Source: Candidatus Peribacterales bacterium (GTDB lineage Bacteria > Patescibacteriota > Gracilibacteria > Peribacterales > Peribacteraceae). Taken from it: a stretch of 64,000 bases of DNA. The DNA lies in NCBI GenBank assembly GCA_020058765.1, contig JAGVDM010000001.1, positions 84,963 through 148,962 of the forward strand. Reading direction: 5' to 3'. Below are positions 6,204-59,203 of this stretch, piece by piece (the stretch's first letter is position 1; every line of letters begins with the position of its first letter). The notes under the pieces are model-generated. The model had not been told where the DNA came from. It saw only the letters and a program-made list of their open reading frames with translations, and did no database searches. Position numbers and translations under genes: made by a program.

Positions 6204-6257
6204 CTTTTCCTGCCAAGTCCTTACGCTGGTGCCTGCATTGCGCCATACTTTGCGTGT

Positions 6258-6332: not shown

Positions 6333-6337
6333 CAATC

Positions 6338-6871: not shown

Positions 6872-6916
6872 ATCGTCAAGTTGTAACGATTTTGAACAGA
6901 GAGCGTCTTCACACTC

Positions 6917-14580: not shown

Positions 14581-14649
14581 GGAAGCCCCATTGTAGCCCT
14601 TCAGAGCGAGTGCACAATCCGCTTTGGGGTACAGAACGTACACTTTTTC

Positions 14650-14678
14650 TTGTCTACGGAATTGTGTCTCGCTAGGAT
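14650..14678 (+). promoter_or_regulatory. Sigma70-like promoter for the SAM riboswitch/metK transcript
   Basis: TTGTCT, 17 bp spacer, TAGGAT. Confidence 0.6.
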
Positions 14679-14695
14679 CGGCACACAACATCGCG

Positions 14696-14799
14696 CTATC
14701 ACGAGTGGTGGTGAGGGAACTGGCCCGGTGATCCACCCCCCAACAGTCCCGCGCATGCGGGAAAATGTGGGACATCCAGCCCCATACGGGGAGAGATAG
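14696..14799 (+). ncRNA. SAM-I riboswitch aptamer
   Basis: P1 CTATC/GATAG; ATCACGAG; P2 with GAGGGAACTGGCCC..TGA kink-turn; CTGG/CCAG pseudoknot; P3 with CAAC bulge; P4 CCCC-ATAC-GGGG; directly upstream of metK. Confidence 0.92.
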
Positions 14800-14816
14800 G
14801 AAGCACCTGCAGATCT

Positions 14817-43292: not shown

Positions 43293-43362
43293 TATTTCCG
43301 TGTTCCGGATTCCGGCGGTTCCACGGTAAGATGATTCCGGTCTCGGTGTTCTTTTGTTCCGT

Positions 43363-43438
43363 AGGCGCTTAGCTCAGTCGGTAGAGCGTCGGTCTCCAAA
43401 ACCGAAGGTCGTAGGTTCGATCCCTACAGCGCCTGCCA
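43363..43438 (+). tRNA. tRNA-Trp (CCA)
   Basis: AGGCGCT acceptor stem, TCGGT-CTCCAAA-ACCGA anticodon arm, GGTTCGATCC T-arm, encoded CCA. Confidence 0.96.
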
Positions 43439-43500
43439 AATCAAAATATACAAGCATCGATCCCCTAGTTGCCCCACACATTCCGGCGCATACTTGGCGT

Positions 43501-46500
43501 ATGCCCACTTTCCCAACAGTCATTAAATCCCCCGTTGTTCTTGCTGGAATCGTTGTCGCTGCCGCGCTTGCGGTGAGCGTGGGTCTCTGGCAATTGCTTG
43601 CACCATCGCAATCACCACAGCAGGCAGCGCTATTCCAGCCATCCGCACAGTACCAGCGGATTGGCGAAGGCACGCCGCTTGCCATGCAGTTTACGGTGCC
43701 TATGCGCCAAGAAAGCGTGGAGCAGCATCTCACTATCGAGCCAACAGTGGAGGGGTCAGTGGAGTGGACGGATGACCGAACAGTGACATTCCGCCCGGCT
43801 GCACCGCTTGCAATGAGCGGTACGTATACCGTCACCGTGGCGCCACTGGCGCAACGCAAAGACGGCGCAGTACTGGGTGCATCTATGACAACAAAGTTTC
43901 TCGTTGCCGGAGCACCGCGCGTAAGTCAGTCCATTCCGCCACCAGAATCGCAAAATGTATCTCCCATGCAGCCGGTGACGATCATCTTCGATCGACCGAT
44001 GGCGGCATTAACTACCCTCACCGAACAGGGGAATCAATTCGCTGATTGGCCAGTAACAATCACACCGCCAGTCGCTGGTACATGGAAGTGGCTAAGCACC
44101 ACAACAGCGGAGTTCACTCCTGCGGATGACTTTGCTCCTGGCACGTCATACCGCGTGCAAGTGCCCGCTGGTATTTCTACGGTGCGTGGCGAACGAACTA
44201 CAGAGGAATTTATGTGGAACTTCACTACGTCACGCCCCGCAGTGGAAACGAGCGAACCACCAGATGGTTTTGAGGGCAGCGGCCCTGAAACCGAGATAGT
44301 GCTTCACTTCAATCAAGAGATCGATCTGCAGAGTGTTTTGGCGCACACACGCCTACTGCTTTCCGTACAAGGTCGTCGATTGCATGATGATGAACTGGGC
44401 GCTGCACGCGAAGCGAATCCATCTGCAGATATTGCCGTTCCTGTTGCCTTTAAAGCCGTGTATGGCCAACGCGAAGAGGACAGTGGAACAGTGACCGATA
44501 CGTCATCTGTTGTGCTTATTCCTACCGCACCACTCGCATTCGACAGTTGGTACACAGTCATCGTGGATGACGGTGTCATGAGCCCCGGCGGCACGCTCGG
44601 CAGCGAAGCGCCGTTCACCATGCAGTTTCGCACAGCAGGTGCTATGCGTATGAATGCTGTTCGGCAAGAATACGGCTCGCTCGTATTCGATTTCAGTAAT
44701 CCATACGATGCGAAGACGGTGAAAAATGCGATCACTATCGCACCCAAGCCAGCAGATTGGGATGACCTTACAGTGGAGGAAAACTTCTGGGATTCCACCA
44801 GCTTGTACCTGTATCCCACATTGGATCCAAGTACGGAATACACCATCAACGTGACTGCTGCTCTGAAGGATTCGTTCGGGCAAGCGCTCCAGAATCCCGG
44901 GGAGAAATTTACCTTTACGACATCGGCAATCGAGCCACGTGTCTTTATACATTCAAACGGTGACTTTGGTGTGTTCGAACGGGATCTGCCACCAGTGCAC
45001 TACATCAATGCTGTGAACGTGGATCACATTGATGTGGCATTCGCACAATTGTCCCTCGAGGAGTTCCTGCAGATGCAACGACAGAAATATGCCGATTGGT
45101 CGTTTGCCCCTGCATTGCAAGATCATGCCATGCATCGCGCATGGAAGTTCCCCGTCACAACGCCCAAAAACGAATGGCAAGTTGTGACTTTGGATCTGGA
45201 AAAAGAACTTGGCCAATCACTGCCTTCCGGCATATACGCACTCACAGCTACTGCGCCTGAATATCATCAATATTACGAGGCTCGGCAGAAGATCGAAGTG
45301 AATTATTTCACGATCAGTAGTACTTCACTCACGCTCAAGTACAGCGGAAACCAGGCATTGGTATGGGCGGTAGACATGAAGACGGGTGCACCGATTGCAG
45401 ATGCAGAAATCACGCTGCATGACTTAAACGGTCAGGCTGTGGTGAGTGGTCGTACTGATAGCGAAGGATTCTTTCAAACAGAGATCAATGCTGCTGCATT
45501 CGCAGTGGACGGCAATACATGGAACCCCGAAATTTGGGTGACAGCACGTACAGCTACAGACTTCGCATTCGTAGGGAGCAGCTGGAATAGCGGCATGTAC
45601 CCAAGCGACTTCGGCATGAGTGAAAACTGGCAGCCGGAGGGCGGAAAGAACGAAATGTACAGCCACCTGTATACCGATCGTCCTATTTATCGCACCGGGG
45701 ATACGGTGCACTTCAAGGGCATTGTGCGCCTCAAAGATGATCGCGGCGTACTCTCTGCCCCTGCGCAGGGGCGCAGTATCCGCGTGCGTATCGACGACGC
45801 GGAGGGGAACACAGTCTTCAGTCAAACACTGCCGATTTCTGCATTCGGGAGCTTCAATGGCAGCATGCCGATTGATACAAAGGCGGGGCTCGGTACGTAC
45901 TGGATGAATGCGGAGTTCGAAGACAGCAGTGACCTCGTATACAACTGGGCTTCCGCGAGCTTCGAAGTCCTCGCGTATCGCAAACCGGAATTCCGCGTAG
46001 ACGTGAATTTTGATACAGAGGAAGCATTCGGTGGGGGCACCATTGGTGCGACCATTGAGGGCGCGTACTACTTCGGCATGCCGATGGATGATGCAACGGT
46101 GCAGTGGCGTGCAATGACCACTGACTACTACTTCAATCGTTACACCGATGGCTGGTACTCCTTCAGCTTGGAGGATTCGTGGTGTTGGTACGACTGCGAG
46201 CGAGAGAGCGAGCCGCTTGCCGATGGTGAGGGGACGCTCGATGACACTGGGAAGTTCCATGTGAAGATCCCCGTTGACCTTACCGAAGAGGCGTTGAGCC
46301 AAGTGCTCTCGCTGGATGTGGATATTACAGATGCCAGCAATCAGGTGGTGAGCACCCGCGCATCCATCCCAGTACATAAGGCAGATGTATACGTAGGTAT
46401 TCGTCCGGAAGACTACGTAGTGCAGCCTGGTGAAGAAGCGAGCGTTGGCCTGGTTACTGTGATGCCCGATGGCACGCCAAAGCCCAACCAACGTGTGGAA

Positions 46501-49500
46501 ATCACTGTGTACAAGCGCACCTGGAACACCACGCGCAAAAAGGGCGTGGATGGCGCGTTCTACTACGACAATGAGCCAATGGATGAGCGTGTCGATACCA
46601 CATCTGTAAGCACGGAAGCCGACGGCAAAGCCACGGCGAAAGTGCGGATCCCTGCGGGTGGGCAATACCGCGTGCTCGCCGTAGTGAAAGACAGTGACGG
46701 TCGCGAAGCCAAAGCAGATACATCCATCTATGCGTGGTCAGACACGTACTTCAACTGGCCGCACAGCAACAGTAACCGCATGACAGTCACGGCGGATCAG
46801 CCCGAATACAAGGCAGGCGAAACAGCCACGCTCCTCGTGCAGTCGCCGTTCCAAGGCGAAGGCGTTTCCGCACTCGTTACCGTGGAACGCGAAGGAATCA
46901 TGTCGCGCATGGTGGTGCCGATTACCAGCTCCGCGCAGCCGATCACGATCCCTGTTACAGAGGAAATGATTCCGAATGCGTATGTCTCAGTTGTTGTAGT
47001 GAAGCCGCGCGTGGGTGAAACGTTCAATGAGTACGGACTGGACACAGGTGCTCCTGCCTTCCGCATTGGTTACGCAAAGCTCAAGGTAGAGAACGCATCG
47101 AAGGGTCTTACAATTACTATTGAGCCAAACAAACGGCGCTACCTGCCGGCTGAACCAGTAGAAGTTCGCCTACTTGCGCAGGATGCACAGGGCAATCCGG
47201 TGCAGGCGGAAATCTCCCTCGCAACGGTCGACATGAGCGTGCTGGCACTCACAGGATTCCGTGTGCCAAACTTGCTCGATCTCTTCTATGCAGATCGCGG
47301 CCTTGGCGTGCGCACGGCACAAAATTTGCTCTACATTCTGGAGCGATTCAAACCGGGTTCCAAAGGCGGTGGCGGTGGCGATTTGGAGGAACGCGCACGT
47401 GGAAACTTCAAAGATACAGCGTACTGGAATCCTTCCATCATCACGGGTGCGGATGGTCGTGCATCGGTGCAATTCACTCTGCCGGATAACCTCACTACGT
47501 GGCAGATTCTTGCGACGGGTCACACCAAAGACAGCCTTGTTGGCGCCTTTGCAACGGAGATTTTGGAAACCAAACAGGTGATTGTTCGGCCGGTGCGTCC
47601 GCGTTTTGCAGTACATGGCGACAAGGCAGAGCTTGCTGCCATTGTGCATAACGGCATGGAAGAAGCGGCAAGCTTCAATGTCATACTCGGTGGCACAGGG
47701 TTTGAAGTTGCAGATGCAGAACAAATGATCACGATCCCAGCGAATGGTCAGGCGAAGCTCGTGTTCCCCGTGACATTCGCAAGCAGCGGAGACAAGGCAT
47801 CGTTCATCTTCACAGCGCAGGGCGTGAACGCTCGTGATGAAATTCACGAGTCCATTCCGTTGGTGCCATTTGGCATTCCACATGCCGTTGCAACGTCGGG
47901 CTTCACCGATGGCGAGGGGGCAGAGGAAACGCTCTTTGTTCCCGTAAAAGAAGAGGTGACGGGAGTAGAAACCGAAGTAACGCTCTCGCCTACGCTCGCT
48001 ACGTATCTGCCCAAGGGCTTGGAATACTTGGTACAGTATCCGTACGGATGCGCAGAACAAACGGTGTCGAGCTTCTTGCCGAACATTGCTATGGCGGAGT
48101 TGCAGGGCTTCGATGCGTTCCAGGTCGTTTCTCAGGAAGACCTCGATGCCAAGGTCACTGCAGGGTTGCAGCGCCTTATCACCTTCCAGCGCAGTGACGG
48201 CGGATTTGGATACTGGGAAGGGTCGAGTGAGAGTCACACGTACCTCACGGCATACATTGTGCACGCATTGCATCTCACACGAAATGCGGGCTACACAGTG
48301 GATGCTGGCGTACTGCAGAACGCTCGCTCATATTTGAGCGATGCTCTGCGCCGTCACCGTATGGAGAGTGATATTGATCTCTCTGAGCGCGCATACATTC
48401 TCTACGTGCTGGGCGAAACAGGCGCACCGGATCAGGCACTCCTGAGCAATCTGTATGGTCAGCGGGACAAGCTCAGCACATTCTCCAAGGCGTACCTCGC
48501 CATGGCGCTTGATCGCATTGGCGATGAGCGTCGCGCGCTGAGCGTGCTCAACGAAATACTCGCTACGGCGAGTGTGAATCCACGCGGTGTGCAGTTCGAA
48601 GAAAAGAACGGATGGCAGTATCGCCGGTTCATGAGCACGGATCAGCGTACGACAGCTCTCGTACTGCAGGCGATGCTCCGCATTGATCCGCAGAACACAC
48701 TTGTGGCGAACGTCGTTCGCGGCATGCTGGCTATGCGCCAAGGTGGTCACTGGGACACCACGCAATCCACCACAGCAAGCATCTTCAGCTTAGTGGAGTT
48801 CCTGGAGCAAACAGGAGAGCTGGATGGAGACTTTACCGCAACGCTTTCCGTAGATGGCACCGCAGTTGCGGAGGCGACGTTCGATGCAACAAACATCCTT
48901 TCACGCCAAACCAAAGTGGTGCCTGCCAGTGCAATGACCTACGGCCAAATGAATCCGCTGCAGGTGGCCAAAGAGGGTGCGGGACGGCTCTACTACGATG
49001 TACTGCTCACCTACTTCTGGAAGACACAACGCATTGATCCAATGGAAGCGGGCATGAGCGTGATGCGAGAAATCACGCCCGTACCTGGCTCCGTTGAGCG
49101 CCCAACGGTTGGCTCCACCTACAAAGTGAAGGTGACCATTACTGTGCCCGAGGAGCGCCACTTTGTTGCGGTGGAAAGCCCGCACCCTGCAGGTATGGAA
49201 GGCGTGGACTTTGCACTCCAAACCACGCAGCAACACCTGCAGGAGGAAATACAAAACGAAGAGCGCAGCGAATGGGGTTGGTGGTGGGATTCCAGCTGGT
49301 ACTTCAGCCACAAGGAATTCCGCGACGATCAGGTATTCCTGTTCGCCGATCACCTGCCTGCCGGTGTGTACAACTACGAATACCTTGTACGCGCTACTCT
49401 GCCTGGCACATTCCGTTGGCGTCCTGCACGCGCGTACGAAATGTACTTCCCGGAAGTGTTCGGCAATACCGCAGGCGGCGTCGTGCAAATTCACGATGCA

Positions 49501-49512
49501 CCACAGTCGTAA
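43501..49512 (+). CDS. Bacterial alpha-2-macroglobulin with N-terminal Ig-like repeats
   Basis: TDRPIYRTG, LPDNLTTW, thioester YPYGCAEQ, QRSDGGFGYW, RATLPG..PARAYEMYFPE; N-terminal TM; start moved to ATG 43501. Confidence 0.95.
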   Translation: MPTFPTVIKSPVVLAGIVVAAALAVSVGLWQLLAPSQSPQQAALFQPSAQYQRIGEGTPLAMQFTVPMRQESVEQHLTIEPTVEGSVEWTDDRTVTFRPAAPLAMSGTYTVTVAPLAQRKDGAVLGASMTTKFLVAGAPRVSQSIPPPESQNVSPMQPVTIIFDRPMAALTTLTEQGNQFADWPVTITPPVAGTWKWLSTTTAEFTPADDFAPGTSYRVQVPAGISTVRGERTTEEFMWNFTTSRPAVETSEPPDGFEGSGPETEIVLHFNQEIDLQSVLAHTRLLLSVQGRRLHDDELGAAREANPSADIAVPVAFKAVYGQREEDSGTVTDTSSVVLIPTAPLAFDSWYTVIVDDGVMSPGGTLGSEAPFTMQFRTAGAMRMNAVRQEYGSLVFDFSNPYDAKTVKNAITIAPKPADWDDLTVEENFWDSTSLYLYPTLDPSTEYTINVTAALKDSFGQALQNPGEKFTFTTSAIEPRVFIHSNGDFGVFERDLPPVHYINAVNVDHIDVAFAQLSLEEFLQMQRQKYADWSFAPALQDHAMHRAWKFPVTTPKNEWQVVTLDLEKELGQSLPSGIYALTATAPEYHQYYEARQKIEVNYFTISSTSLTLKYSGNQALVWAVDMKTGAPIADAEITLHDLNGQAVVSGRTDSEGFFQTEINAAAFAVDGNTWNPEIWVTARTATDFAFVGSSWNSGMYPSDFGMSENWQPEGGKNEMYSHLYTDRPIYRTGDTVHFKGIVRLKDDRGVLSAPAQGRSIRVRIDDAEGNTVFSQTLPISAFGSFNGSMPIDTKAGLGTYWMNAEFEDSSDLVYNWASASFEVLAYRKPEFRVDVNFDTEEAFGGGTIGATIEGAYYFGMPMDDATVQWRAMTTDYYFNRYTDGWYSFSLEDSWCWYDCERESEPLADGEGTLDDTGKFHVKIPVDLTEEALSQVLSLDVDITDASNQVVSTRASIPVHKADVYVGIRPEDYVVQPGEEASVGLVTVMPDGTPKPNQRVEITVYKRTWNTTRKKGVDGAFYYDNEPMDERVDTTSVSTEADGKATAKVRIPAGGQYRVLAVVKDSDGREAKADTSIYAWSDTYFNWPHSNSNRMTVTADQPEYKAGETATLLVQSPFQGEGVSALVTVEREGIMSRMVVPITSSAQPITIPVTEEMIPNAYVSVVVVKPRVGETFNEYGLDTGAPAFRIGYAKLKVENASKGLTITIEPNKRRYLPAEPVEVRLLAQDAQGNPVQAEISLATVDMSVLALTGFRVPNLLDLFYADRGLGVRTAQNLLYILERFKPGSKGGGGGDLEERARGNFKDTAYWNPSIITGADGRASVQFTLPDNLTTWQILATGHTKDSLVGAFATEILETKQVIVRPVRPRFAVHGDKAELAAIVHNGMEEAASFNVILGGTGFEVADAEQMITIPANGQAKLVFPVTFASSGDKASFIFTAQGVNARDEIHESIPLVPFGIPHAVATSGFTDGEGAEETLFVPVKEEVTGVETEVTLSPTLATYLPKGLEYLVQYPYGCAEQTVSSFLPNIAMAELQGFDAFQVVSQEDLDAKVTAGLQRLITFQRSDGGFGYWEGSSESHTYLTAYIVHALHLTRNAGYTVDAGVLQNARSYLSDALRRHRMESDIDLSERAYILYVLGETGAPDQALLSNLYGQRDKLSTFSKAYLAMALDRIGDERRALSVLNEILATASVNPRGVQFEEKNGWQYRRFMSTDQRTTALVLQAMLRIDPQNTLVANVVRGMLAMRQGGHWDTTQSTTASIFSLVEFLEQTGELDGDFTATLSVDGTAVAEATFDATNILSRQTKVVPASAMTYGQMNPLQVAKEGAGRLYYDVLLTYFWKTQRIDPMEAGMSVMREITPVPGSVERPTVGSTYKVKVTITVPEERHFVAVESPHPAGMEGVDFALQTTQQHLQEEIQNEERSEWGWWWDSSWYFSHKEFRDDQVFLFADHLPAGVYNYEYLVRATLPGTFRWRPARAYEMYFPEVFGNTAGGVVQIHDAPQS

Positions 49513-49515
49513 CGC

Positions 49516-51912
49516 ATGTTGTTCTTCCACCATCGCACGGCACACGTCGACCGCCGCCAGCGAATCCTGATCGCGGCGGGGGTCGTGTGCGTGCTTGTCA
49601 TCGGCTTCGCACTGCTGCCATTACCCGGCGCAATTTGGCGGCCCCCTCTGCAGACTCCGATTACGGTTACCGATCGCGAAGGTCGCTTGCTCTTCTCCGC
49701 GCGCCAAACAAACTTCGGCGCGCAGGCGCCGATTGCATTCGAGGAGATTCCCACGCACATCCGAGACGGCCTCGTCGCGATGGAAGATCGTGGATTCTAT
49801 GGGCACCCTGGTGTGAGCATCCGCGGCGTCGCACGCGCATCCCAACAGAACCTTCGTTCCGGCAGAGTCATCTCTGGTGGATCTACACTCACGCAGCAAC
49901 TCGTGCGCATCCGCCTCAACCCCAAGCGAAGAAGTGTGTCGTACAAACTGCGTGAAATGTATCTCGCGCTCAAGGTCGATGCGCTGTTTTCGAAGGAAGA
50001 AATCCTCGAGCAATATCTCAATTCCGTGTATTTCGGCCACCAGGCCTATGGGCTGCGCAGTGCCGCGCAGACGTACTTCGGCAAGGAGCCAGGGGAGCTG
50101 TCCATTGCCGAATCCGCATTACTCATTGGCGTCGTGCAGTCACCTGTTTCCCTCGATCCATTCAAGAACCGCGCAGGGGCAATTGCTCGTCGCGATCGCG
50201 TGCTCAATGCATGGGTGGAGACAGGCGTCATTACCGCCGAAGATGCCGAGCAAGCACGAAACGAATCCCTGCGGCTTGCTCCTGATCGCGTAGACATCCT
50301 CGCGCCGCACTTCGTGTTCTGGGCACTTGAGCAGGCAGGTGAAGATGTTGCGCCAGGCGCAGAACTGCGCACCACGCTCGACCTGACATTGCAGCAAGAA
50401 ATTGAAAGGATCGTTGATCATCGTCTGCTGGAGCTTGCAGAGAAGAACGCCACGTCCGCAGCAGTGGTGGTGCTGGATGCGAAGAACGGAGACATCCTCA
50501 CGATGATTGGTTCTGCCGATTACTTCGATGCACTTCACGACGGCGCAGTGAATGTTGCGATTGCTGCGCGTCAGCCGGGTTCCGCGCTCAAGCCGTTCAC
50601 ATACGCGCTCGCGCTCGCTGGTGGAGATACAGCTGCAACTACAGTGGCCGATACTGAAGTGCAGCTGCTGACGGAGGAAGGGAACCCCTACACACCTCGT
50701 AACTACGATTACGATCTGCACGGCTTGGTGCGCTACCGCGAGGCACTCGCGAATTCCTATAACATCGCTGCAGTAAAGGTGCTCGAGAAAGTCGGCGTGC
50801 AGCGGTTCATGGAATTCTTGCGTCGTGCCGGTATCACTACCCTCACGCGTGATCCCGAGTTCTACGGTCTTGCACTCACCCTCGGCAGCGGCGAAGTCCG
50901 CCTGCTTGAGCTTGCCGAAGCCTACGGCATTTTTCCGCGTGGTGGCGTCACACTCCACACACGCACATTTCTCGATGAACCTGTAGTACCTGGCGATACT
51001 ATTCTCGATCCCCGCGTGGCATGGATTATCAGTAATATTTTGAGCGACGCATCTGCACGTTTGCCGGAATTCGGAGAAGGCACGCCGCTTTCTGTGCCGC
51101 CACACCGGGTGGCTGCCAAGACTGGCACCACGCGCAACGCACGCGACAACTGGGTGGTGGGGTACACGTCGGATCGTATTGTGGGCGTGTGGGTGGGCAA
51201 TGCAGACAACACACCCATGAAGGGCACGTCTGGTGTTACGGGCGCTGGGCCGATCTTTCGTGATGCTATGGCGGCTGCACTGCGTGGTATGCCGCCTGCG
51301 GATTTCCCTCGCCCCGCAGGTATGAGCACCATCGCAATCTGCCCCCTCTCCGGCAAGCTCCCCACCAGTGAGTGCTCTCGTACCATGCAGGAAGTATTTG
51401 TTGCGGGTACCGAACCCACGGAGCCAGATGACATCTACCGTCGTGTGCCGATTGATCGGCGCAACGGCCTGCTGGCCAATGCGAGCTGCCCCGAAGAGTT
51501 TGTAGAACAGCGCACGTTCACACTCTTCCCTGCGGATGTTCGCTCATGGGCGAGGGAGAACGGCTTCCGCGAACCGCCTGTGCAGGTGTCACCATTATGT
51601 GGCGGTGTCGCAGAGGGGCTGCCCGACGTAGCACGCGATACACTCCACATCACACAACCGCAGCCGGGGGACAGCTACTTGCTCGATCCACTCATTCCAG
51701 ATGAGAACGAGCAGATCACGCTGGAAGCTAGAGCAGGCACGGCAATACACACTGTTGAGTGGCTTGTGGACGACGTTTTGGTTGGTACTGGCACAGCCCC
51801 CGACTTCCGTATTCGTTGGCGGCCGATCGCTGGTGTGCACCGCATTGTTGCGCGCACAGTCGATCAAGCCGCCTCTGTGCAGATTCTCGTGGAAAACGGA
51901 GTATCTCGATGA
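49516..51912 (+). CDS. pbpC: Penicillin-binding protein 1C
   Basis: EDRGFYGHPG and GGSTLTQQ (transglycosylase); SALK, SYN, KTG (transpeptidase); C-terminal PBP1C-type domain; 3 bp after A2M. Confidence 0.9.
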   Translation: MLFFHHRTAHVDRRQRILIAAGVVCVLVIGFALLPLPGAIWRPPLQTPITVTDREGRLLFSARQTNFGAQAPIAFEEIPTHIRDGLVAMEDRGFYGHPGVSIRGVARASQQNLRSGRVISGGSTLTQQLVRIRLNPKRRSVSYKLREMYLALKVDALFSKEEILEQYLNSVYFGHQAYGLRSAAQTYFGKEPGELSIAESALLIGVVQSPVSLDPFKNRAGAIARRDRVLNAWVETGVITAEDAEQARNESLRLAPDRVDILAPHFVFWALEQAGEDVAPGAELRTTLDLTLQQEIERIVDHRLLELAEKNATSAAVVVLDAKNGDILTMIGSADYFDALHDGAVNVAIAARQPGSALKPFTYALALAGGDTAATTVADTEVQLLTEEGNPYTPRNYDYDLHGLVRYREALANSYNIAAVKVLEKVGVQRFMEFLRRAGITTLTRDPEFYGLALTLGSGEVRLLELAEAYGIFPRGGVTLHTRTFLDEPVVPGDTILDPRVAWIISNILSDASARLPEFGEGTPLSVPPHRVAAKTGTTRNARDNWVVGYTSDRIVGVWVGNADNTPMKGTSGVTGAGPIFRDAMAAALRGMPPADFPRPAGMSTIAICPLSGKLPTSECSRTMQEVFVAGTEPTEPDDIYRRVPIDRRNGLLANASCPEEFVEQRTFTLFPADVRSWARENGFREPPVQVSPLCGGVAEGLPDVARDTLHITQPQPGDSYLLDPLIPDENEQITLEARAGTAIHTVEWLVDDVLVGTGTAPDFRIRWRPIAGVHRIVARTVDQAASVQILVENGVSR

Positions 51913-52015
51913 TCTCGAAATGCTCTCCAAATAAAGCAAATCCTTGGTTGCAGGGGGAACGGTGACCATATACTCTTTCCCTCCACTTTTGAGCCTGTAC
52001 TCTGCCCGGACTTCC

Positions 52016-54151
52016 ATGACTCTCTCCAACCGAGATCTGGCCGCGTCCCCCGCTCTAGAGCAGGAAATAGGCAGTGCCCAGACCAACGGAGTAGTCGTTC
52101 CCGAGAACGGGAACGGCGATCATGGTATCGCGGAAATTCCCGAGATTGCCTACGTGCAGGAGGAGTTTGGCGCGTGGCTCAAGTACTTACTTGAACGTAA
52201 TGGTATCGAGATTGATGCGGCTCAAAGCCGCGCGATCGATATCGTTGTGGCACAGTTCGCAGACCGCTGTTACAAGTTGCTCGATGAGCAGCTGTTCCCC
52301 AACGCGATCAATCGATATGCCGAGCGCGATTTGAAGGAATTCTACGTTTCGAAAATTCGGGAACAGCTTACGAGCGATAAGGCATCCGCAGCGGTGATCC
52401 TCGATCAGGCGATCTACCATATGGTGCGCCAGGAACTCGGCAAGGATCACCCGAATCAAATTGTGGAATTAAGTATGGGGCGGCCGCATGCGAACCTCTA
52501 CACGTCCGCTGCCGGGGGAAAGGTGTCACGCGTTGGCTATCCTTCACTGGAGGAGCAGGTGCGTCAGATCAAGGAGCAGATCGGCGATCGTAAAGCGTTC
52601 TTGGTGGACGATACAACCGTAGAAGGAGGGACTTTCAATACCGCAACAGAGCTGTTAAAGCAGGGAGGAATACAGATGGCAGATCTAGAGAAGCATTTGG
52701 TGTACTTCCTTACTCTCCGTGAGGAAACAGGAATGAAGCGCAAATCGCCGCCATATACGAGGAGCGTCAAAATGACGAATTCGCGAGGCTCGATTGAGCT
52801 ACGCGAGTGTTCCGTGTTCGGCGGTGCCCAAGAAGCCACATCTGCGGACAATTCCCGCGCGGTGGTCATTCCGGCGTTTCCCCCCTTCAGCGACGGCACG
52901 GCATTGCGCATGGCGAAAAATGGCGTGAGCATTCTCAATATTGCCGAGGCCGCAAGCGAATTAAATCAGCTCAACAAGGAATTTGCGGAAGACCTCGGGG
53001 GTATCCTTGGGAAGGGGCCAAAAGGCATCACACTCGGTACGTTCAACCTCGTACCTGCCGATCCCGCGGAGCAGCGTGAATCTGCTCCGAATGATCCAAC
53101 AGAGATGATCGGACAAGGTCGGGCGTTCATGCGTCATGCTATGGCGAAGATCCTAGGGAAGGAGCTCCCTGCGAATGAGTCGCTGGAAAAATATCTTGCA
53201 AGCGTACCTCTCGTTGATTATCTGCAGATTGCCAAGGAACACACCGAGAGGCAGCCGAAACCAGCAATCAACACGGTCTGCGTGGATACCGACGGTACCA
53301 TCGCAGAGATGATGCCGGTGGATCCGGAGCTGCGGGAGATCGGTGGACCAATGCTCTTCCGGGAGACGCAGCTTGGATTCCATGTATATCAACGCGCAGC
53401 ACGCGGTGTCCGCAAGTTACTGCGAACGAACCAACTCGCCACCGTGAGCAAGCTCGGCTCCGAGAATATCGAGCAAGTGTTGCAGCTCTTCTACCGGTGG
53501 AAGCTCGATGCGGAGGCGGAGCAGCAATACGGCGAAGAAGCCAAGGAGCGCATCCGCCAGATCTTTATTGAGGGCTACGGCAAAGGTAGAGGGCTCGTGG
53601 AAGCCGAGCGCTTCATCGACAGCATGCCCACGCGCTACCACGCGATTCGTCACATGACGTGGGATCTGCCACTCGATGAAATTTACACCAAGAATGCCGA
53701 AGCGCAGCAGTTCGCTATGAACGTGCAGCGCCGCGGTGGCAAGCTCGTGTTTGTTACTGCATCACCGCGCATCCACGCCGTGAAGCTCCTCACGTCGCTC
53801 GGCATCATGCAGAATCCCGGCCCAGACCATTTCGAGCTCTATACGGTGGAAGATCTGTACGATCCGGAGACCGTCCCGCGCCGCCGAAATCCGCATCCCA
53901 ACCAGATGTTCGTAGAGCGGGAGAAGAGCGTGATCTTGCAGCAGCTCCACGAGAACACCGGCGTGGAAAAGGGAAAGATCGCCATGGGGGGCGATGTATA
54001 CCGCACCGAAGTGCAGCCAGCGCTCTTCAACGGGTTCCCAGCACGCATCGTGCGCAATCCTGCCCAGCTCAAACAGTACGCGATGGGTATTCAGCTCCCC
54101 GGCGACGACGCCATCAAGCAGGAAGATCTGTATCACGAATTCCAACAGTAA
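52016..54151 (+). CDS. Type I PRTase-like domain fused to a HAD-superfamily phosphatase domain
   Basis: PRPP-binding loop FLVDDTTVEGGT; HAD motifs DTDGT, VFVTAS, K (REKS), MGGD; TATACT at 51969-51974 upstream. Confidence 0.7.
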   Translation: MTLSNRDLAASPALEQEIGSAQTNGVVVPENGNGDHGIAEIPEIAYVQEEFGAWLKYLLERNGIEIDAAQSRAIDIVVAQFADRCYKLLDEQLFPNAINRYAERDLKEFYVSKIREQLTSDKASAAVILDQAIYHMVRQELGKDHPNQIVELSMGRPHANLYTSAAGGKVSRVGYPSLEEQVRQIKEQIGDRKAFLVDDTTVEGGTFNTATELLKQGGIQMADLEKHLVYFLTLREETGMKRKSPPYTRSVKMTNSRGSIELRECSVFGGAQEATSADNSRAVVIPAFPPFSDGTALRMAKNGVSILNIAEAASELNQLNKEFAEDLGGILGKGPKGITLGTFNLVPADPAEQRESAPNDPTEMIGQGRAFMRHAMAKILGKELPANESLEKYLASVPLVDYLQIAKEHTERQPKPAINTVCVDTDGTIAEMMPVDPELREIGGPMLFRETQLGFHVYQRAARGVRKLLRTNQLATVSKLGSENIEQVLQLFYRWKLDAEAEQQYGEEAKERIRQIFIEGYGKGRGLVEAERFIDSMPTRYHAIRHMTWDLPLDEIYTKNAEAQQFAMNVQRRGGKLVFVTASPRIHAVKLLTSLGIMQNPGPDHFELYTVEDLYDPETVPRRRNPHPNQMFVEREKSVILQQLHENTGVEKGKIAMGGDVYRTEVQPALFNGFPARIVRNPAQLKQYAMGIQLPGDDAIKQEDLYHEFQQ

Positions 54152-54154
54152 CCC

Positions 54155-55444
54155 ATGTCCGGCATACGAGCCGCACACCTGCTGGCAGATCTCGCACCGC
54201 ATCTGCAACGGCTTGCGGAGCAGATGCAGGTGCAGCCGGAGCTTGCGCCAGACATTCGGCGTATTGCCGATATGCACGCAGCTCGATTGTTTGCGTTACT
54301 AAAAACAGATGTATTCACACATCGCGTGCAATTCCATTCGCAGCACGATGGAGAGCAGTTTGATCCAGCCGCGCATACAGATGCGCTTGCGATCGTGCCG
54401 CAGCATCACCTCACGTTCCTTGCGCAGCAAGAGCAGCCAATACAGCAGCGCACACAAGATGTTCTCCGCTTACACGGTCGATTGGATGCTGGGGAAATTA
54501 CTGCATCCGTTGCTGCGATCGAGCAGCAATTCATTGCCGACTGTGAGGTCGTGCTCGGTCGCCTACATGTTCCACATACCGATCCTGAGCATGGAACACT
54601 GCCACAGAAGACGGTTGTTGCGAGCGATATGGATGGTGTTCTTGCCGTGCTGCGTATGCAGAATCCCGAACACAAAGGACCGGTGCAATTCCGCGATACC
54701 CGCCTCGGCTCTGCGGTGCAGCGCAATGCAGAAGCGTTTGAAGAAGAAGTACGTGCTCGTGCAGGCGGTCTTGCTGCTCCAAACGACCACGATACAGAAA
54801 GGGGATTGCTGCCCTACTTCGTGCAGAAATACGGTTCGGTGATGGAGGAGGGGTGGGGAGAGGAATCGCAGCAACGTATTCGTCAGATCTTCCTCGAGAG
54901 TTATCCTGCTTCTCGAAGAGAAGAGGCTCTGCAGGCAGCGGAGCAGCATATTGCCGGTATGCCACTTGCGTATCATGTCTTCCGTCATAAAACATGGGAT
55001 CACAATGTTGCTGATGTGTACGACATGGATCAACAAGCGGCAGATTTTGCTATCCAGGTTATTGAGCGAGGCGGAACACTGCTCTTTGTGACTGCGGCAC
55101 CACGCATTCATGCTCTAAAAATGCTCAAAGCATCCGGCGTCATGGATGCAGTTGGCCCCGAAGGTTTCGAGTTGTATACCATGGAAGACATGTACGAACC
55201 CGGTACGGTAGAAAACCGCACTTTCGCCGAAGGCGACAAGGGTACACTCCTAGCCAATTGGGCTCAGCAGCGGGGTATCCCCAAAGACCAAATCGCTATG
55301 GGCGGTGATCAGTATCACAGCGATGTGGCACCGGTGGTGGCACAAGGCATCCAGTCTCGTGTTGTGAGCGGACCCGCAGGGTTGAATCGATACCTCGCAA
55401 GCATACGTCTGCCGCGCGATGAGGCTTCAGGAGCCCAGGAATAG
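54155..55444 (+). CDS. HAD-superfamily phosphatase, paralogue of the upstream gene's C-terminal domain
   Basis: DMDGV, LFVTAA, K (GDKG), GDQYHSD; long blocks shared with 52016-54151. Confidence 0.75.
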   Translation: MSGIRAAHLLADLAPHLQRLAEQMQVQPELAPDIRRIADMHAARLFALLKTDVFTHRVQFHSQHDGEQFDPAAHTDALAIVPQHHLTFLAQQEQPIQQRTQDVLRLHGRLDAGEITASVAAIEQQFIADCEVVLGRLHVPHTDPEHGTLPQKTVVASDMDGVLAVLRMQNPEHKGPVQFRDTRLGSAVQRNAEAFEEEVRARAGGLAAPNDHDTERGLLPYFVQKYGSVMEEGWGEESQQRIRQIFLESYPASRREEALQAAEQHIAGMPLAYHVFRHKTWDHNVADVYDMDQQAADFAIQVIERGGTLLFVTAAPRIHALKMLKASGVMDAVGPEGFELYTMEDMYEPGTVENRTFAEGDKGTLLANWAQQRGIPKDQIAMGGDQYHSDVAPVVAQGIQSRVVSGPAGLNRYLASIRLPRDEASGAQE

Positions 55445-55495
55445 CCGCCCCCAGAGTGGTGTACCTGTCTTTGCGGTTAAATCCCCTCCCATACG

Positions 55496-55555
55496 TTGTT
55501 CTTGGGTCTCCTTCTCATTACAATCCGTTCTAGAGGGTCCGGTTCTACGGACTCT
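55496..55555 (+). promoter_or_regulatory. Internal promoter and leader hairpin before the nucleoside hydrolase
   Basis: TTGTTC, 17 bp, TACAAT (55519-55524); AGGGTCCG/CGGACTCT stem at 55534-55555. Confidence 0.45.
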
Positions 55556-55575
55556 GCTCTCCGTTACTCGCATAT

Positions 55576-56574
55576 ATGACCCAGCGACCTCTGATCATCG
55601 ACTGCGACACCGGCGAAGATGATGCAATCGCGCTCGTGCTTGCTTCGATGGCGGGTCTGCCGCTCAAGTACATCGTGACGTGTCATGGGAATACGTCACT
55701 TGAGAATGCCACCAGGAACTCAGCAGACATCATGAGTCTTGTGGGTGCATCCGACGTGAAGATCATTAAGGGTGCGGCCAAGGCGCTGGAGCCTCATAAG
55801 TTGGAAGGTGAAAACTTTACGGTGGGGGAGGATTTCATTGGCAAGAACGGCATCTGCAATGTGCAGCTCCCGCTTTCTCAATACGACAATATCCTCGACT
55901 TCGGTGACGACAAGTACATTGAAGAGCTTGCAAATCGCATCCGCGAGTGCGGTCCCGTTGATTACATCATCACGGGTCCTTGCACTAATTTCGCGCGTCT
56001 CTGCGAATACTTCGGCGAGGAGATCAAACAGCACATCAACTCGCTCACCATCATGGGTGGCGCGGTATACGTGACTGGCACGCGTGGTGCGGGCGTGCGC
56101 AACGTGCAGCACGATCGCGATCCTACGAAACCGTCCGACTCTTGGGCGGAGTTCAACTTCTACTGCGACCCGAAAGCCATCGAAATCACGCTGCGCGCAA
56201 ACCTGAATCCACTCCTCGTGACGTGGGATATTTGCACGCGGTTTGAGGTGGGAATGGATGTCATTCAGAGCCTGCAATCCGACACACCCGGCGGCAAATT
56301 CGTCATGGAGCTCATGAATGCTTTCATGCAGAACTTCGGGATCAAGAACAAAACGCACTTCGAGCTCTGCGACCCGCTGACCATCATGGCGTACATGGGC
56401 TACGGTCAGGTGAATAAAGACGCGGTATGCATCATCACTGATCGTCATCACTTCGGGAAAAGCTACTCCGACATTGGGTGCCCAGAAGTACGGTACTTCT
56501 ACGCATCGAAAGCAGAGGTGCCCGTGATCATCAACGACATGCTCACAAAGATGGGCATTCACCGCACAGCCTAA
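55576..56574 (+). CDS. Nucleoside hydrolase (IUNH family)
   Basis: DCDTGEDD, GPCTN, MGG, AEFNFYCDP, LCDP. Confidence 0.92.
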   Translation: MTQRPLIIDCDTGEDDAIALVLASMAGLPLKYIVTCHGNTSLENATRNSADIMSLVGASDVKIIKGAAKALEPHKLEGENFTVGEDFIGKNGICNVQLPLSQYDNILDFGDDKYIEELANRIRECGPVDYIITGPCTNFARLCEYFGEEIKQHINSLTIMGGAVYVTGTRGAGVRNVQHDRDPTKPSDSWAEFNFYCDPKAIEITLRANLNPLLVTWDICTRFEVGMDVIQSLQSDTPGGKFVMELMNAFMQNFGIKNKTHFELCDPLTIMAYMGYGQVNKDAVCIITDRHHFGKSYSDIGCPEVRYFYASKAEVPVIINDMLTKMGIHRTA

Positions 56575-57572
56575 TGGAACGCGACCCCGCCATCGTGGTA
56601 CCCGGCGGCCTCAATACAGACTTCATCCTTACGGGACTGAGCCGCTTGCTGAAGCCCGGGGAGCTGGGTGCGGGTAGCACCATGGATATCAAGCCCGGTG
56701 GGAAGTCCCGTAACATTGCTCAGATGATCGCGAGCTTGAGCGGACCTGGGAGTGTTGCCATGCTCGGGCGTACGGTGCGTGACCGCTTTGGGTTGTGGCA
56801 GGCACCCTACGAAGCACTCAAAGAAAGCGGCGTGAATGTAGATCATGTGCAAGTGCTCTCTCCAGAGGAAGCAGGCACAGATTTGCCAGGTCTCGCGCTT
56901 ATTCCCGTCGATCGTGATGGGCAGAATCAAATCTACTTGTACCCTGGCGCGAATGCAGACTTCTCCCCCGCAGACATTGATGCTGCGGAAGGGGTATTCG
57001 AAGGTGCAGGAGCGCAGAAGGGCATCCTCGCACTCTCGCTCGAAATGCCACTGGCCACAGCCACGCGCGCTATTGCTCTCGCCAAGCGACATGCGCTCAA
57101 AGTGGTGCTGGATCCGGGCGGCATTAGCCCCAATCCTTCAGTCGAGGAATTGGATCAATACAAAACGCTGCTCGATGGAGTGGATCTCTTTAAACCCAAT
57201 GAACACGAAGTGAAAGTTCTTACAGATATCGCCGTGGTGAATTTGGAAACAGCCATACAGGCAGCCAAAATTCTCCGGGATCTCGGTGTAGGTGCCGTGC
57301 TGATTACCGCAGGCAAAGATGGTGCCTATCTGCTTGCTGACGGCGTAGAGGAGCACATTCCCATCCCGAATGTGCAGATCAATTCTACCGCCCGTGATGC
57401 CACGGGTTGCGGTGACCAGACCATGGCAGCGCTCTGTGCTCGTTTACAGGCAGGCGATAGCCTAACCCAGGCAGCACGCACAGGCGTGCTCGCAGGCACG
57501 CTGCAGTTCTACCGCACGGGTGTGCAGCCGGTTTCCGCTGCCGAGTTGGCGGAGTGGCAGCACAAGGCCTAA
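56574..57572 (+). CDS. Ribokinase-like PfkB family sugar kinase
   Basis: PGGKSRNIA, PNEHE, DATGCGD; TAATG coupling to the hydrolase. Confidence 0.88.
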   Translation: MERDPAIVVPGGLNTDFILTGLSRLLKPGELGAGSTMDIKPGGKSRNIAQMIASLSGPGSVAMLGRTVRDRFGLWQAPYEALKESGVNVDHVQVLSPEEAGTDLPGLALIPVDRDGQNQIYLYPGANADFSPADIDAAEGVFEGAGAQKGILALSLEMPLATATRAIALAKRHALKVVLDPGGISPNPSVEELDQYKTLLDGVDLFKPNEHEVKVLTDIAVVNLETAIQAAKILRDLGVGAVLITAGKDGAYLLADGVEEHIPIPNVQINSTARDATGCGDQTMAALCARLQAGDSLTQAARTGVLAGTLQFYRTGVQPVSAAELAEWQHKA

Positions 57573-59203
57573 AGCCCTGGGCACGCTGCGCGAATGACCG
57601 GATCTGTCACGGTCTTCCCAAATGTTTTTGTGAATGCCGCAGCGAATTCCTGTGCCAGTTTTTCGGCTGCTGCTGCATAGTCTTCGGGGTTCTTCCATGT
57701 GCGTTCTGGGTCAAGAATCGTACTCTCCACCCCCGGGCACGATGTGGGCACACTAAACTTCCACAGAGGATCCTCGCGCATGACGGCCGAGTCGAATGTG
57801 CCGTGTTGCACTGCTTGTACGATCGCACGTGTCACGTCGATATCCATTCGTTTCCCTGTGCCGTAGCCACCGCCCGTCCAGCCTGTATTCACTACATACA
57901 CATGGGTACCGTGCTTGCTCATACGTTTTGCCAACAGATCGGCGTAATCCTTGGGATTGCGCGGCATAAACGGCCCACCAAAGAATCGCGAGAATGCCGA
58001 CACTGGGGTGGTAATACCCGTTTCGGTACCGGCGAGTTTGCTCGTGTAACCCATAAGGAACCAGAGCATTGCTTGCGCGGTAGTGAGCCGTGCGATTGGT
58101 GGCAATACGCCGTTGGCGTCTGCAGTCAGGAAGATGATGGTCTCCGGATGTGTGCCACAGGCACCGGGCTTTGCACTCGGCAGAAAGTCGAGAGGGTACG
58201 ACGCTCTCGAGTTCTCCGCGAATCGGTCATCGTCCACATCTACCGTGCCATTGGGGTACACCATGGCATTCTCAATGATCACACCGCTTTGCGCAGTAGC
58301 ACGATGTGAGAAGACGGCGCTATGAATCTGCGTTTCCTTTGTCGCATCCAAGCGGATGAGTTTTGCATAGGAGCCGTTCTCCAAATTCGCGACGCCATTC
58401 TCTGACCACAGGTGTTCATCGTCACCGATAAGTGTCATCCCTGCGCCCATAGACAGGGTAGTTTTCCCTGTGCCCGAAAGGCCTAGGAAGAGCGTCGTTT
58501 TTCCGGTGGCATCCTCATTGGCGCTGCAATGCAGTGGTAGCACGTCATGCTCCGGTAGCAGGTAATTCATCACCGTAAACATGAGCTTCTTCACCGCGCC
58601 GCAGTACGCTGTGCCATACACAAAGCCAATGCGACGATCGAAATCCATCGCAATGCACATATCAACCACCTTGCCATCTACTTCTCGCAGCACACCCTGG
58701 TACTTCTCGGTAGAGAGTTTCGTATGCGGAAGGGCAATGAGCGTGAATGGCTTGTCTCCAAAAACACTCGCATTTCCGTGTATGGCAGGTCGGAACATAT
58801 TCTCGCAAAAGAGCGCTGTGAGCGGACTATCTGTCACCACCCGCACAGGCAGCGCAAATGCAGCATCCGCACCGAGCGAGCGGTCGCTCACAAATACCTC
58901 TTGGCGATCTTTGAGTACGTCGAGCGCGTCATTGAGCAACTGGTCGAATACGGCAGACTCCATGGGGATGCAGGTAGGCGACGACCAGTCGATATGCGCC
59001 TCAGATGCAGCATGGCGCACAATATACGTGTCTTTTGGAATGCGTCCGGTCTCTGCCGCGCGCGTCCAGGTGGCAAGCGCTCCAATGGGCAGCTCCAGCG
59101 CTTCACGATGCTCCAATACTGATGCAATCAGTGCGGCGCGCGACATGTTTCTCTTCGCCTTCTCGTGAGTTGCCACGCGTTCCAATGCTTGTGCTGGAGA
59201 CAT
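57569..59203 (-). CDS. pckA: Phosphoenolpyruvate carboxykinase (ATP)
   Basis: LHCSAN, GLSGTGKTTLS, IGDDEH, ENSRASYP, VNTGWTGG. Confidence 0.96.
   Translation of the reverse strand: MSPAQALERVATHEKAKRNMSRAALIASVLEHREALELPIGALATWTRAAETGRIPKDTYIVRHAASEAHIDWSSPTCIPMESAVFDQLLNDALDVLKDRQEVFVSDRSLGADAAFALPVRVVTDSPLTALFCENMFRPAIHGNASVFGDKPFTLIALPHTKLSTEKYQGVLREVDGKVVDMCIAMDFDRRIGFVYGTAYCGAVKKLMFTVMNYLLPEHDVLPLHCSANEDATGKTTLFLGLSGTGKTTLSMGAGMTLIGDDEHLWSENGVANLENGSYAKLIRLDATKETQIHSAVFSHRATAQSGVIIENAMVYPNGTVDVDDDRFAENSRASYPLDFLPSAKPGACGTHPETIIFLTADANGVLPPIARLTTAQAMLWFLMGYTSKLAGTETGITTPVSAFSRFFGGPFMPRNPKDYADLLAKRMSKHGTHVYVVNTGWTGGGYGTGKRMDIDVTRAIVQAVQHGTFDSAVMREDPLWKFSVPTSCPGVESTILDPERTWKNPEDYAAAAEKLAQEFAAAFTKTFGKTVTDPVIRAACPGL

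Follow-up and report, generated by a model that had tools for sequence, protein, structure and literature searches.

The window analysed here, a 64,000-nucleotide stretch of a Candidatus Peribacterales genome, carries four genes in one orientation on the + strand at 52016-57572, according to its list of open reading frames (ORFs). The first, P1, encodes a protein in which a type I phosphoribosyltransferase (PRTase) domain is predicted to precede a haloacid dehalogenase-type (HAD) phosphatase domain; the second, P2, appears to be a truncated paralogue of the first; the third and fourth encode a nucleoside hydrolase of the inosine-uridine nucleoside hydrolase (IUNH) family and a ribokinase-like kinase of the PfkB family. 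We tentatively read them as a cassette for the breakdown of ribonucleotides and the re-use of their parts. Its features are as follows (aa, amino acids; PRPP, phosphoribosyl pyrophosphate; AF2, AlphaFold2).

52016-54151, + strand: P1, 711 aa from its ATG, of an unnamed PRTase-HAD family
52121-53050, + strand: PRTase-like domain of P1, residues ~36-345, placed by the AF2 model and fold searches
52598-52633, + strand: predicted PRPP-binding loop of P1, FLVDDTTVEGGT, residues 195-206, with D198, D199, G204, G205 and T206
53264-54115, + strand: HAD domain of P1, residues ~417-700, C1-capped
54155-55444, + strand: P2, 429 aa, P1 paralogue, truncated
55445-55575, + strand: spacer of 131 bp between P2 and gene 3
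55576-56574, + strand: gene 3, IUNH-family nucleoside hydrolase, 332 aa, PF01156
56574-57572, + strand: gene 4, ribokinase-like PfkB kinase, 332 aa, PF00294; the ORF is also open from 56478

The ORF list and the junction sequence bear out the arrangement described in an earlier, sequence-only reading of this DNA: four co-oriented genes with a 3-bp gap (54152-54154) between P1 and P2, a 131-bp gap before gene 3, and a TAATG overlap before gene 4. At this overlap, GCCTAATGGAA, the final A of the gene 3 stop codon TAA (56572-56574) is also the first letter of the gene 4 ATG (56574-56576), and by it the kinase is coupled translationally to the hydrolase. P1 has an alternative start, TTG at 51944, that would add 24 residues. 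No sigma-70-like promoter was found in 51500-58000, where 6 terminator-like sites were counted and 5.2 would arise by chance; a search of 51700-57700 for a leader RNA or riboswitch gave no Rfam match at E <= 1; and the 131-bp spacer folds no better than its shuffled counterparts (z 0.10). The sequencing runs listed comprise no RNA data, only two DNA runs, with shares of 0.30 and 0.07.

Neither P1 nor P2 reaches the cut-off of any Pfam or NCBIfam family, as expected from the earlier failure to recognise in them any named family, and a search of the PDB with either sequence alone yields marginal HAD and Prs-loop matches only. Their PRTase and HAD assignments are based instead on structure models and profile relatives. 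On PF00156, P1 scores 12.5 bits (E 0.093, cut-off 26.3), the match spanning the FLVDDTTVEGGT loop, and it matches no other Pfam PRTase family at E <= 0.1; three distant relatives, P0018, P0019 and P0045, exceed the PF00156 cut-off, at 28, 34.4 and 29.5 bits respectively. The AF2 model of the N-terminal domain, built from a 17-row alignment of homologous segments out of fetched loci, has a pLDDT (predicted local confidence) of 85.9 and a pTM (predicted template-modelling score) of 0.88. The PDB entries listed by Foldseek as matching it are type I PRTases or PyrR, except 7f06, whose title is uninformative (probability 0.98-1.00); the best is HGXPRT, 4zfn (E 1.3e-4, probability 1.00). VIA-align comparison with 48,161 chains placed in the top 27 rows proteins that are PRTase-fold by title, apart from 7f06 and 5vog (titles uninformative), with 132-181 residues aligned and 6-oxopurine PRTases at the summit, within ties. 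The type I PRTase fold of this domain, as modelled, is secure, in agreement with the sequence-only reading; the acceptor is not, because the fold-search Z values, 9.5-7.6, are moderate. In the ESM Atlas the domain falls only into unnamed clusters (0.89-0.90), one of which has 14% PF00156 members.

The PRPP loop of PRTases consists of a hydrophobic strand, two acidic residues and x-x-x-(T/S)-G-x-T. The stretch in P1 that had been pointed out as such a loop is present and fits the pattern, with Glu at the usual Thr/Ser position; D198, D199, G204, G205 and T206 are invariant in a 5-row alignment of the closest relatives, and the loop is kept in most of 17 close relatives, though P0009 and P0010 have a degenerate version and P2 has none. 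Two basic residues, R121 and R137 in the numbering of the domain alignment, are conserved in a loop that is modelled at low confidence and predicted to be flexible. We infer that the PRTase domain of P1 is catalytic.

HAD enzymes are recognised by four motifs: I, DxDxT/V; II, T/S; III, K; IV, GDxxxD/E. P1 has DTDG at 424-427 (DTDGT), T581, K637 and GDVYRTE at 659-665, and P2 has SDMDG (DMDGV), TAAPRIHA, K and GDQYHSD, all intact, so that a HAD domain is present in both large proteins as originally claimed. All 17 relatives share D426, G427 and K637, and each of D424, T581, G659 and D660 is found in at least 90% of them. A helical insert of ~150 aa lies between motifs I and II, where the cap domain would sit. 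Although the AF2 model of full-length P1 is mediocre (pLDDT 62.9, part of the cap below 50), Foldseek relates one half of it to HAD phosphatases and the other half to type I PRTases; matches to the HAD half include HDHD3 (3k1z), L-2-haloacid dehalogenase, XMP phosphatase (7ef6) and SDT1 (3onn), at probabilities of 0.99-1.00 and E values of 8e-4 to 1e-2, and in the model P1 has a Rossmann-like capped HAD fold. The Pfam HAD cut-offs are missed: P2 scores 14.7 bits on PF12710 against a cut-off of 27, and P1 has no HAD match at E <= 0.1; the orthologue in the sister species (G001) scored 21.6 bits in this test.

P2 is closely tied to P1. The C-terminal ~310 residues of P1 and ~300 of P2 are 37% identical over 313 columns (E 1e-60), and P2 residues 21-137 and 146-429 correspond to positions 178-308 (E 1e-7) and 374-654 (E 1e-123) of the A2 profile. 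The N-terminus of P2 thus matches the rear of the PRTase-like domain and the linker, without the PRPP loop, which makes P2 a truncated copy of a P1-like gene. Maximum-likelihood analysis of the HAD domains places P2 with the single-copy Peribacteria HADs (support 90/92), long branches leading to the P1 clade (1.22) and to P0005 (2.2); some of the long-branch placements are uncertain. In the window it is P2 whose HAD motifs equal the family consensus, while motif IV of P1 departs from it (GDVYRTE vs GDQxxSD).

A related pair exists in a Deltaproteobacteria locus (L007), where two full-length P1-family paralogues stand in tandem at 5282-7375 and 7893-10286. In one of them, P0009, the PRPP loop is dead and the HAD motifs are intact; the second, P0005, retains its loop but carries Gly where the HAD nucleophile, Asp, would be. 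Complementary decay of this kind in duplicated copies says, as far as motifs can tell, that both activities are needed, and it suggests, without proving, that P1 and P2 act as a pair. Complex prediction with the HAD domains of P1 and P2, run without controls, gave a score of 0.00, which speaks neither for nor against a heteromer.

Genes 3 and 4 belong to the families previously named for them. Gene 3 matches PF01156 (IU_nuc_hydro) at E 1.9e-46 and 159.5 bits (cut-off 34.2) and is the sole PF01156 match in the genome. Its best PDB relative is RihA (E 6e-18); with E. coli RihA, to which it is 27% identical, it has in common the fold family, the DxDxxxDD metal motif (DCDTGEDD aligning with DCDPGHDD) and the remaining metal and ribose ligands, the residues kept being, in RihA numbering, D8, D10, D14, D15, N39, E164, N166, D170 and D241. 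It differs from RihA in two insertions, in its C-terminal third, and in having neither active-site histidine: His82 is replaced by Ile and His240, which we take to be position 239 in the literature numbering, by Cys. It also misses the equivalog cut-offs for RihA (98.6 vs 433 bits), RihC (83.8 vs 382) and UriH (74 vs 450). The missing histidines serve leaving-group activation in nucleoside hydrolases. A survey of 64 subfamily members, 22 close (tier-1) and 42 more distant (tier-2), found I, L or V at position 82 in 60, with one Ala and three gaps, and at position 240 Cys in all 22 tier-1 members and Asn in 40 of the 42 in tier-2 (one S, one F); the general-acid His was seen in 0/64. A non-standard substrate for this hydrolase is therefore plausible on the alignment.

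The kinase matches PF00294 (PfkB) at E 3.9e-39 and 135.2 bits. Its best family is TIGR02152, on which it scores 165.6 bits, under the equivalog cut-off of 299.65; the other two PfkB genes of the genome score 124.3 and 73.9. All 13 of its PDB matches at E <= 1e-10 are ribokinases. It is 33% identical to E. coli RbsK and keeps N14, D16, K43, N46, E143 and D255, presumably the ribose-site and catalytic residues of that enzyme; N14, K43 and E143 are lost in the two other PfkB proteins.

The gene set was sought elsewhere by tblastn of the window proteins, and four related loci were compared.

L005, Peribacteria: P1-P2-IUNH, then contig end; P1 67% identical to that of the window
L004, same genus (G001): P1-IUNH-PfkB; P1 33% identical
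L006, Peribacteria: P1-IUNH-PfkB; P1 32% identical
L007, Deltaproteobacteria metagenome-assembled genome: full-length paralogue-P1-IUNH-PfkB; IUNH 63% identical

The set thus recurs in all four, three from Peribacteria and one from Deltaproteobacteria (in L005 only as far as the contig end), as the earlier proposal required of a real system, and this recurrence makes the cluster more than chance. On the chromosome L004 sits where the window cluster does, with PBP1C on one side and the aminotransferase on the other. Of 41 relative genomes, 2 have the P1 family, and the IUNH is present in these two and in one genome of another family. The hydrolase is far better conserved than P1: within the genus it is 83% identical from one species to the other, P1 33%, and the window and the Deltaproteobacteria locus compare at 63% vs 28%. 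The kinase of the latter is only 30% identical to that of the window and scores 252 bits on TIGR02152 vs 165.6; being divergent and more canonical, it makes it seem that a ribokinase was recruited twice, independently.

The P1 family is very rare, besides being unnamed: a word-indexed search of 5.8 billion proteins returned 5 relatives including the query, and an exhaustive HMMER search of 1.84 billion representatives returned 64 at E <= 0.001 and 13 at E <= 1e-30. None of ten relatives looked up bears an informative name. About 30 of the weaker matches are proteins of 500-570 aa that align to the N-domain of P1 only; several of these exceed the PF00156 cut-off and also have a canonical HAD domain. 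Stand-alone PRTase-like proteins of ~300-340 aa were found as well. Relatives of this 520-aa family number 68 proteins, with source labels Roizman-, Beckwith- and Woesebacteria and 'Patescibacteria group'; database entries call them 'HAD hydrolase-like' or 'FMN phosphatase YigB', and they are uncharacterised. On this distribution the PRTase-HAD fusion is an architecture centred on the candidate phyla radiation (CPR), and rare even there: P0019, of the 520-aa family, gave 3 partial matches and zero full-length ones in 401 Patescibacteria genomes. These Microgenomates-type proteins resemble P1 in domain order, in a homologous PRTase-like domain (P1 vs the A3 profile, E 1.3e-23) and in having an IUNH gene directly downstream in 4/7 loci; they differ in that their HAD is a short canonical one (PF00702/PF13419), no ribokinase was found at their loci, and in their IUNH the position of RihA His240 is Tyr in 8/8 aligned, where that of the window has Cys. 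Beyond the PRPP loop, LDR, R, R, Q, E/D-x-R-E/D and P..PFSDG are invariant across both families, positions that look more like an active site than a bare binding fold.

Metagenomes scanned with the 520-aa family gave 57 loci, whose six-frame ORFs were scored with local profile hidden Markov models, adjacency of HAD and IUNH being counted only where at least 600 nt followed downstream. In 20 of the 27 CPR loci with such room, the gene immediately after the related HAD gene is an IUNH gene: in 4/7 where the HAD is fused, and in 16/20 with a closely related stand-alone HAD (15 found by script, plus L047, whose larger overlap exceeded the script's window). After distant HADs an IUNH gene comes next in 1/16, and that one is a truncated close relative. 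The two genes overlap by 1-76 nt, with one gap of 387 nt; in L056 the IUNH is upstream, and L065 has no HAD ORF match. Separate PRTase-like genes occur in L023 (HAD-IUNH-PRT), L045 (PRT-HAD-IUNH), L028 and L032. No PfkB gene was seen in the CPR metagenome loci, which are mostly short. From these gene orders HAD plus IUNH is apparently the conserved core, with a PRTase-like part fused or nearby in a subset, and the form found in Peribacteria and Deltaproteobacteria appears to have the ribokinase in addition. HAD and IUNH are paired frequently, not universally: the window IUNH was found in 3/401 Patescibacteria genomes, and at the two other IUNH loci, L073 and L074 (the latter broken by stops), no HAD of the family lies within ~1.3-1.5 kb.

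Other genes recur at the Microgenomates-type loci (L012, L014, L021, L022, L028, L029, L031, L032, L034, L040, L042, L043, L046 and L047): HisRS (7), aspartoacylase/AstE-like (7), TrpR-like (6), GNAT (4), histidine-racemase-like (4), SLOG/LOG-like (3) and M20 peptidase (2). They could reflect lineage synteny or a larger pathway. At three loci (L028 6010-7647, L039 43-1638, L042 3804-5405) the HAD is fused to a C-terminal region of ~330 aa, which has no Pfam or NCBIfam match in L028 and L039 and no Pfam match in L042, where Pfam alone was searched.

The genome of the host, a groundwater-type bacterium (1.17 Mb, 99% complete), supplies part of the metabolic setting. Profile searches of it found Prs, a PyrE-like orotate phosphoribosyltransferase, PurF and a ComF-like protein, and PyrF, zwf and pgl are within the window. 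The link once drawn between the cluster and the last two holds only in that they share a genome and a window: zwf (13111-14775, -) and pgl (12416-13150, -) are ~38 kb away on the opposite strand and are not part of it. The same searches of the genome did not find an Hpt/Apt-type PRTase, uracil phosphoribosyltransferase (UPRTase), PNP/UDP phosphorylase or RuBisCO, nor nicotinate or nicotinamide phosphoribosyltransferase (NAPRTase/NAMPT) or quinolinate phosphoribosyltransferase (QPRTase); as positive controls, PF00156, PF14681 and PF01048 were each detected in 14/14 known genomes, PF00016 in 5/14, PF04095 in 8/14 and PF01729 in 12/14. Because these other salvage genes were not found, the cassette is where the host has, as far as detected, its sole nucleoside-cleaving enzyme and its sole candidate for a salvage-type PRTase. 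In the genome no adenylyltransferase for nicotinamide or nicotinate mononucleotide (NMN/NaMN) was recognised, one 137-aa CTP_transf_like protein giving domain-level matches only, and the NAD synthase model yields weak PP-loop matches only. A second PfkB kinase (G000:C1:295400-297200; L070 489-1451, -) scores best on the nucleoside kinase model NF041164, at 101 bits, far below its cut-off; by this likeness the host may phosphorylate nucleosides directly.

The reading we favour, with a probability of roughly 0.45, is that of a cytoplasmic cassette which breaks down ribonucleotides and ribonucleosides and re-uses the parts, the base being recaptured by the PRTase domain. Starting from what is reported above on folds, families and catalytic motifs, on the order, coupling and conservation of the genes, and on the missing alternative salvage genes, we infer its substrates, the direction of flux and the cooperation of P1 with P2 as follows. 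A HAD phosphatase, probably P2 in the main with a possible contribution from the HAD half of P1, would strip the 5'-phosphate from a nucleoside monophosphate (NMP); the IUNH-family hydrolase would cleave the nucleoside to base and ribose; the ribokinase would turn ribose into ribose-5-phosphate, destined for the pentose-phosphate pathway or, via Prs, for PRPP; and the type I PRTase domain of P1 would, with PRPP, recapture the free base when nucleotides are needed. The sequence-only reading had proposed a closed strip-and-rebuild loop acting on host-derived nucleotides. Its outline is reasonable, and is best taken as a catabolic route that harvests ribose and can optionally recapture the base; a closed loop would be futile, and nothing in the analysis shows the nucleotides to be host-derived. 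That interpretation, supported in part overall, was made without the recognition of P2 as a truncated paralogue, the HAD-IUNH core in CPR, the atypical hydrolase and the host's de novo nucleotide synthesis.

Six points weigh against the favoured reading. A PRTase, a nucleotidase and a nucleosidase acting on one base would form a futile cycle that spends PRPP, and the fusion of PRTase to phosphatase makes this worse. Peribacteria have essentially complete de novo nucleotide synthesis, as far as the accessible text of PMC4736985 goes, hence salvage is not essential in the host. No conserved transporter adjoins the cluster in the neighbourhoods compared. The cassette is missing from 39 of the 41 relative genomes. 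P1, P2, hydrolase and kinase all fall under the curated equivalog cut-offs, and the loss of His across the hydrolase subfamily hints at an uncommon nucleoside substrate.

The kind of pathway is already known. In yeast ribose salvage, Phm8 is a HAD-type enzyme and Urh1 belongs to the IUNH family, and the logic is that of the first three steps proposed here: in the accessible part of the report, the nucleotidase Phm8 and the nucleoside hydrolase Urh1 send ribose into the pentose-phosphate pathway, with Pnp1 also taking part (PMC4039369). There the genes are scattered, no PRTase is fused, and ribose is obtained partly as ribose-1-phosphate via the phosphorylase; here all is in one operon, the phosphatase is fused to a PRTase, and the hydrolase lacks the two RihA-type histidines. 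Trypanosomatid purine salvage, in the portions of the literature available, is similar in logic, a nucleoside hydrolase being followed by a type I PRTase (HGPRT, APRT or XPRT) with no nucleoside kinase. Trypanosomatids are described there as purine auxotrophs with separate canonical enzymes, whereas the present host has PurF and PyrE and a PRTase domain under the Pfam cut-off. In the openly accessible literature we found no description of this PRTase-HAD fusion or of the operon. What is new relative to that literature is the fused or split PRTase-HAD family, its tight pairing with a His-less IUNH subfamily, the ribokinase operon form and the complementary decay.

The same four proteins could serve, though we think it unlikely, a riboside pathway for a non-canonical base: P1 would ribosylate an unusual acceptor and the fused HAD dephosphorylate the product to a free riboside, while the hydrolase would be specific for that riboside or a related one (pyridinium, imidazole or methylated-purine, for instance) and the ribokinase would recycle the ribose. 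The PRTase-then-HAD order of domains is that of consecutive steps, and the hydrolase is conserved far better than P1, as seen above. Absence of the general-acid His from the whole surveyed subfamily would, on general enzymological grounds, suit a leaving group with no need of protonation, and mildly favours the modified-nucleoside alternative that the sequence-only reading had allowed for. A precedent is offered by ribofuranosyltransferases, in which, according to the accessible text of PMC11231755, one polypeptide (gPRT plus PRP phosphatase; PDB 7shg) performs PRPP-dependent transfer before its phosphatase domain removes the 5-phosphate, as is proposed for P1; the HAD profile has a weak local match of ~100 residues to the 7shg chain (profile 548-631 vs chain 164-266, E 2.2e-4), the one similarity seen. 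Their acceptor is in that text a glycan, however, and no glycan-assembly genes lie near the window cluster; the transferase domain did not come up in the fold searches, which may have missed it. The host's lack of detectable NAPRTase/NAMPT and QPRTase would also fit, the NAD source of Peribacteria being called unclear in the accessible text of PMC4736985, but with no NMN/NaMN adenylyltransferase recognised an NMN product has no obvious use. Moreover, an operon whose translationally coupled genes both make a riboside and hydrolyse it would work against itself without some modifying step in between, and the cluster contains no modifying enzyme; and in structure the PRTase domain is nearest to ordinary purine and pyrimidine PRTases. 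In its fullest form, equally doubtful, P1 would be the founder of a CPR-centred 'ribosylate, then dephosphorylate' family for a non-canonical base, forming with the His-less hydrolase and the ribokinase a dedicated riboside pathway, the halves having been divided between paired paralogues after duplication. The candidate ribosides would be of pyridine (nicotinamide/nicotinate) or imidazole type, in organisms with no recognised NAD-precursor phosphoribosyltransferase; the NAD-related idea is a minority reading of the cassette.

That the PRTase-like domain is no enzyme at all, and senses PRPP or nucleotides so as to switch the attached or partner nucleotidase, allowing breakdown only when pools permit, strikes us as improbable. 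Two PRTase-fold proteins that regulate by binding PRPP or nucleotides, PyrR and PurR, appear respectively among the closest Foldseek matches and the VIA-align rows; PRTase chemistry seems dispensable in P0009, P0010 and P2, where the PRPP loop is decayed or deleted and the HAD intact; and the futile-cycle problem disappears. Yet the invariance of many charged and aromatic residues outside the PRPP loop is a pattern seen more typically in active sites, P0005, with its loop kept and its HAD nucleophile lost, implies that the PRTase half has a job of its own, and the PRTase-like domain also exists as a separate gene.

Less credible again is a linear reformatting of unusable nucleotides, in which the HAD would act on 3'-NMPs or on damaged or modified NMPs, the hydrolase free the base and the PRTase rebuild a 5'-NMP. 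All four activities would be used without futility, an atypical hydrolase site fits non-standard substrates, and related CPR HADs score best, below cut-off, on models of pyrimidine 5'-nucleotidase and the house-cleaning nucleotidase YjjG; but where it is the base that carries the modification the PRTase step would bring no benefit, and deoxynucleosides are unlikely substrates since IUNH enzymes, as generally understood, need the ribose hydroxyls.

A nucleotide-based defence or conflict system, raised by the sequence-only reading, can practically be set aside: PRTase-like effectors do occur in retrons and Ter-linked modules (in the parts of the literature available) and SLOG/LOG-like genes are found in three related CPR loci, but none of the four proteins matches any family of PADLOC-DB 2.0 (0 for each at E <= 0.01), P1 has no PRTase-CE match (its relatives only sub-threshold ones), the neighbours are housekeeping genes with no mobile-element genes at the cluster borders, and two species of the genus have the cluster at the same genomic position. 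Anantharaman et al. in 2012 reportedly described a Ter-linked PRTase/HAD module for a 'nucleoside-like metabolite', which resembles the present cluster in having a PRTase and a HAD phosphatase in one neighbourhood. Ter-linked PRTases have Pfam families of their own, which P1 fails to match, and there are no TerD or ATP-grasp genes near the cluster.

The breakdown-and-recapture cassette, if real, would be a RuBisCO-free route from nucleotides to ribose-5-phosphate; in Peribacteria, according to the accessible text of PMC4736985, there is no form II/III RuBisCO. It would also hold the only base-salvage enzyme in a genome lacking detectable Hpt, Apt, Upp and nucleoside phosphorylases. CPR bacteria (Patescibacteria) have tiny genomes and are thought to live on the metabolites of their neighbours, so that nucleotide handling is central to their lifestyle. 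Two families unnamed in databases emerge, the PRTase-HAD fusion with its recurrent IUNH and the nucleoside hydrolases without the usual histidines, and the complementary decay is a natural experiment on keeping two activities on one scaffold. Should the substrate be non-canonical, a gap in CPR cofactor or nucleoside metabolism would be filled.

The neighbours of the cluster are PBP1C, phosphoenolpyruvate (PEP) carboxykinase and aminotransferase genes. The PEP carboxykinase, ATP-dependent (57569-59203, -; PF01293, E 2e-152), converges on the cluster and has no counterpart at L004, the syntenic locus in the sister species; the enzyme is reported as not identified in Ca. Peribacter riflensis genomes in the accessible text of PMC4736985. 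In that sister species an ArsP-type permease gene, absent from the window, lies divergently between PBP1C and the P1 orthologue (L004 10744-11724, +). A SAM (S-adenosylmethionine) riboswitch, RF00162, at 14693-14802 (+; 46.7 bits, barely over the gathering score of 44.4), precedes the S-adenosylmethionine synthetase gene (14872-16029) and overlaps the start of the opposite-strand zwf ORF (13108-14775). Upstream of the cluster, a bacterial alpha-2-macroglobulin of ~2000 aa (43354-49512, +) with MG, bait-region, TED and bMG10 domains is directly followed by the PBP1C-type penicillin-binding protein gene (49516-51912, +), presumably a known gene pair. The TTG start of the alpha-2-macroglobulin ORF at 43354 crosses a tRNA gene (43363-43435), and its true start must therefore be further downstream.

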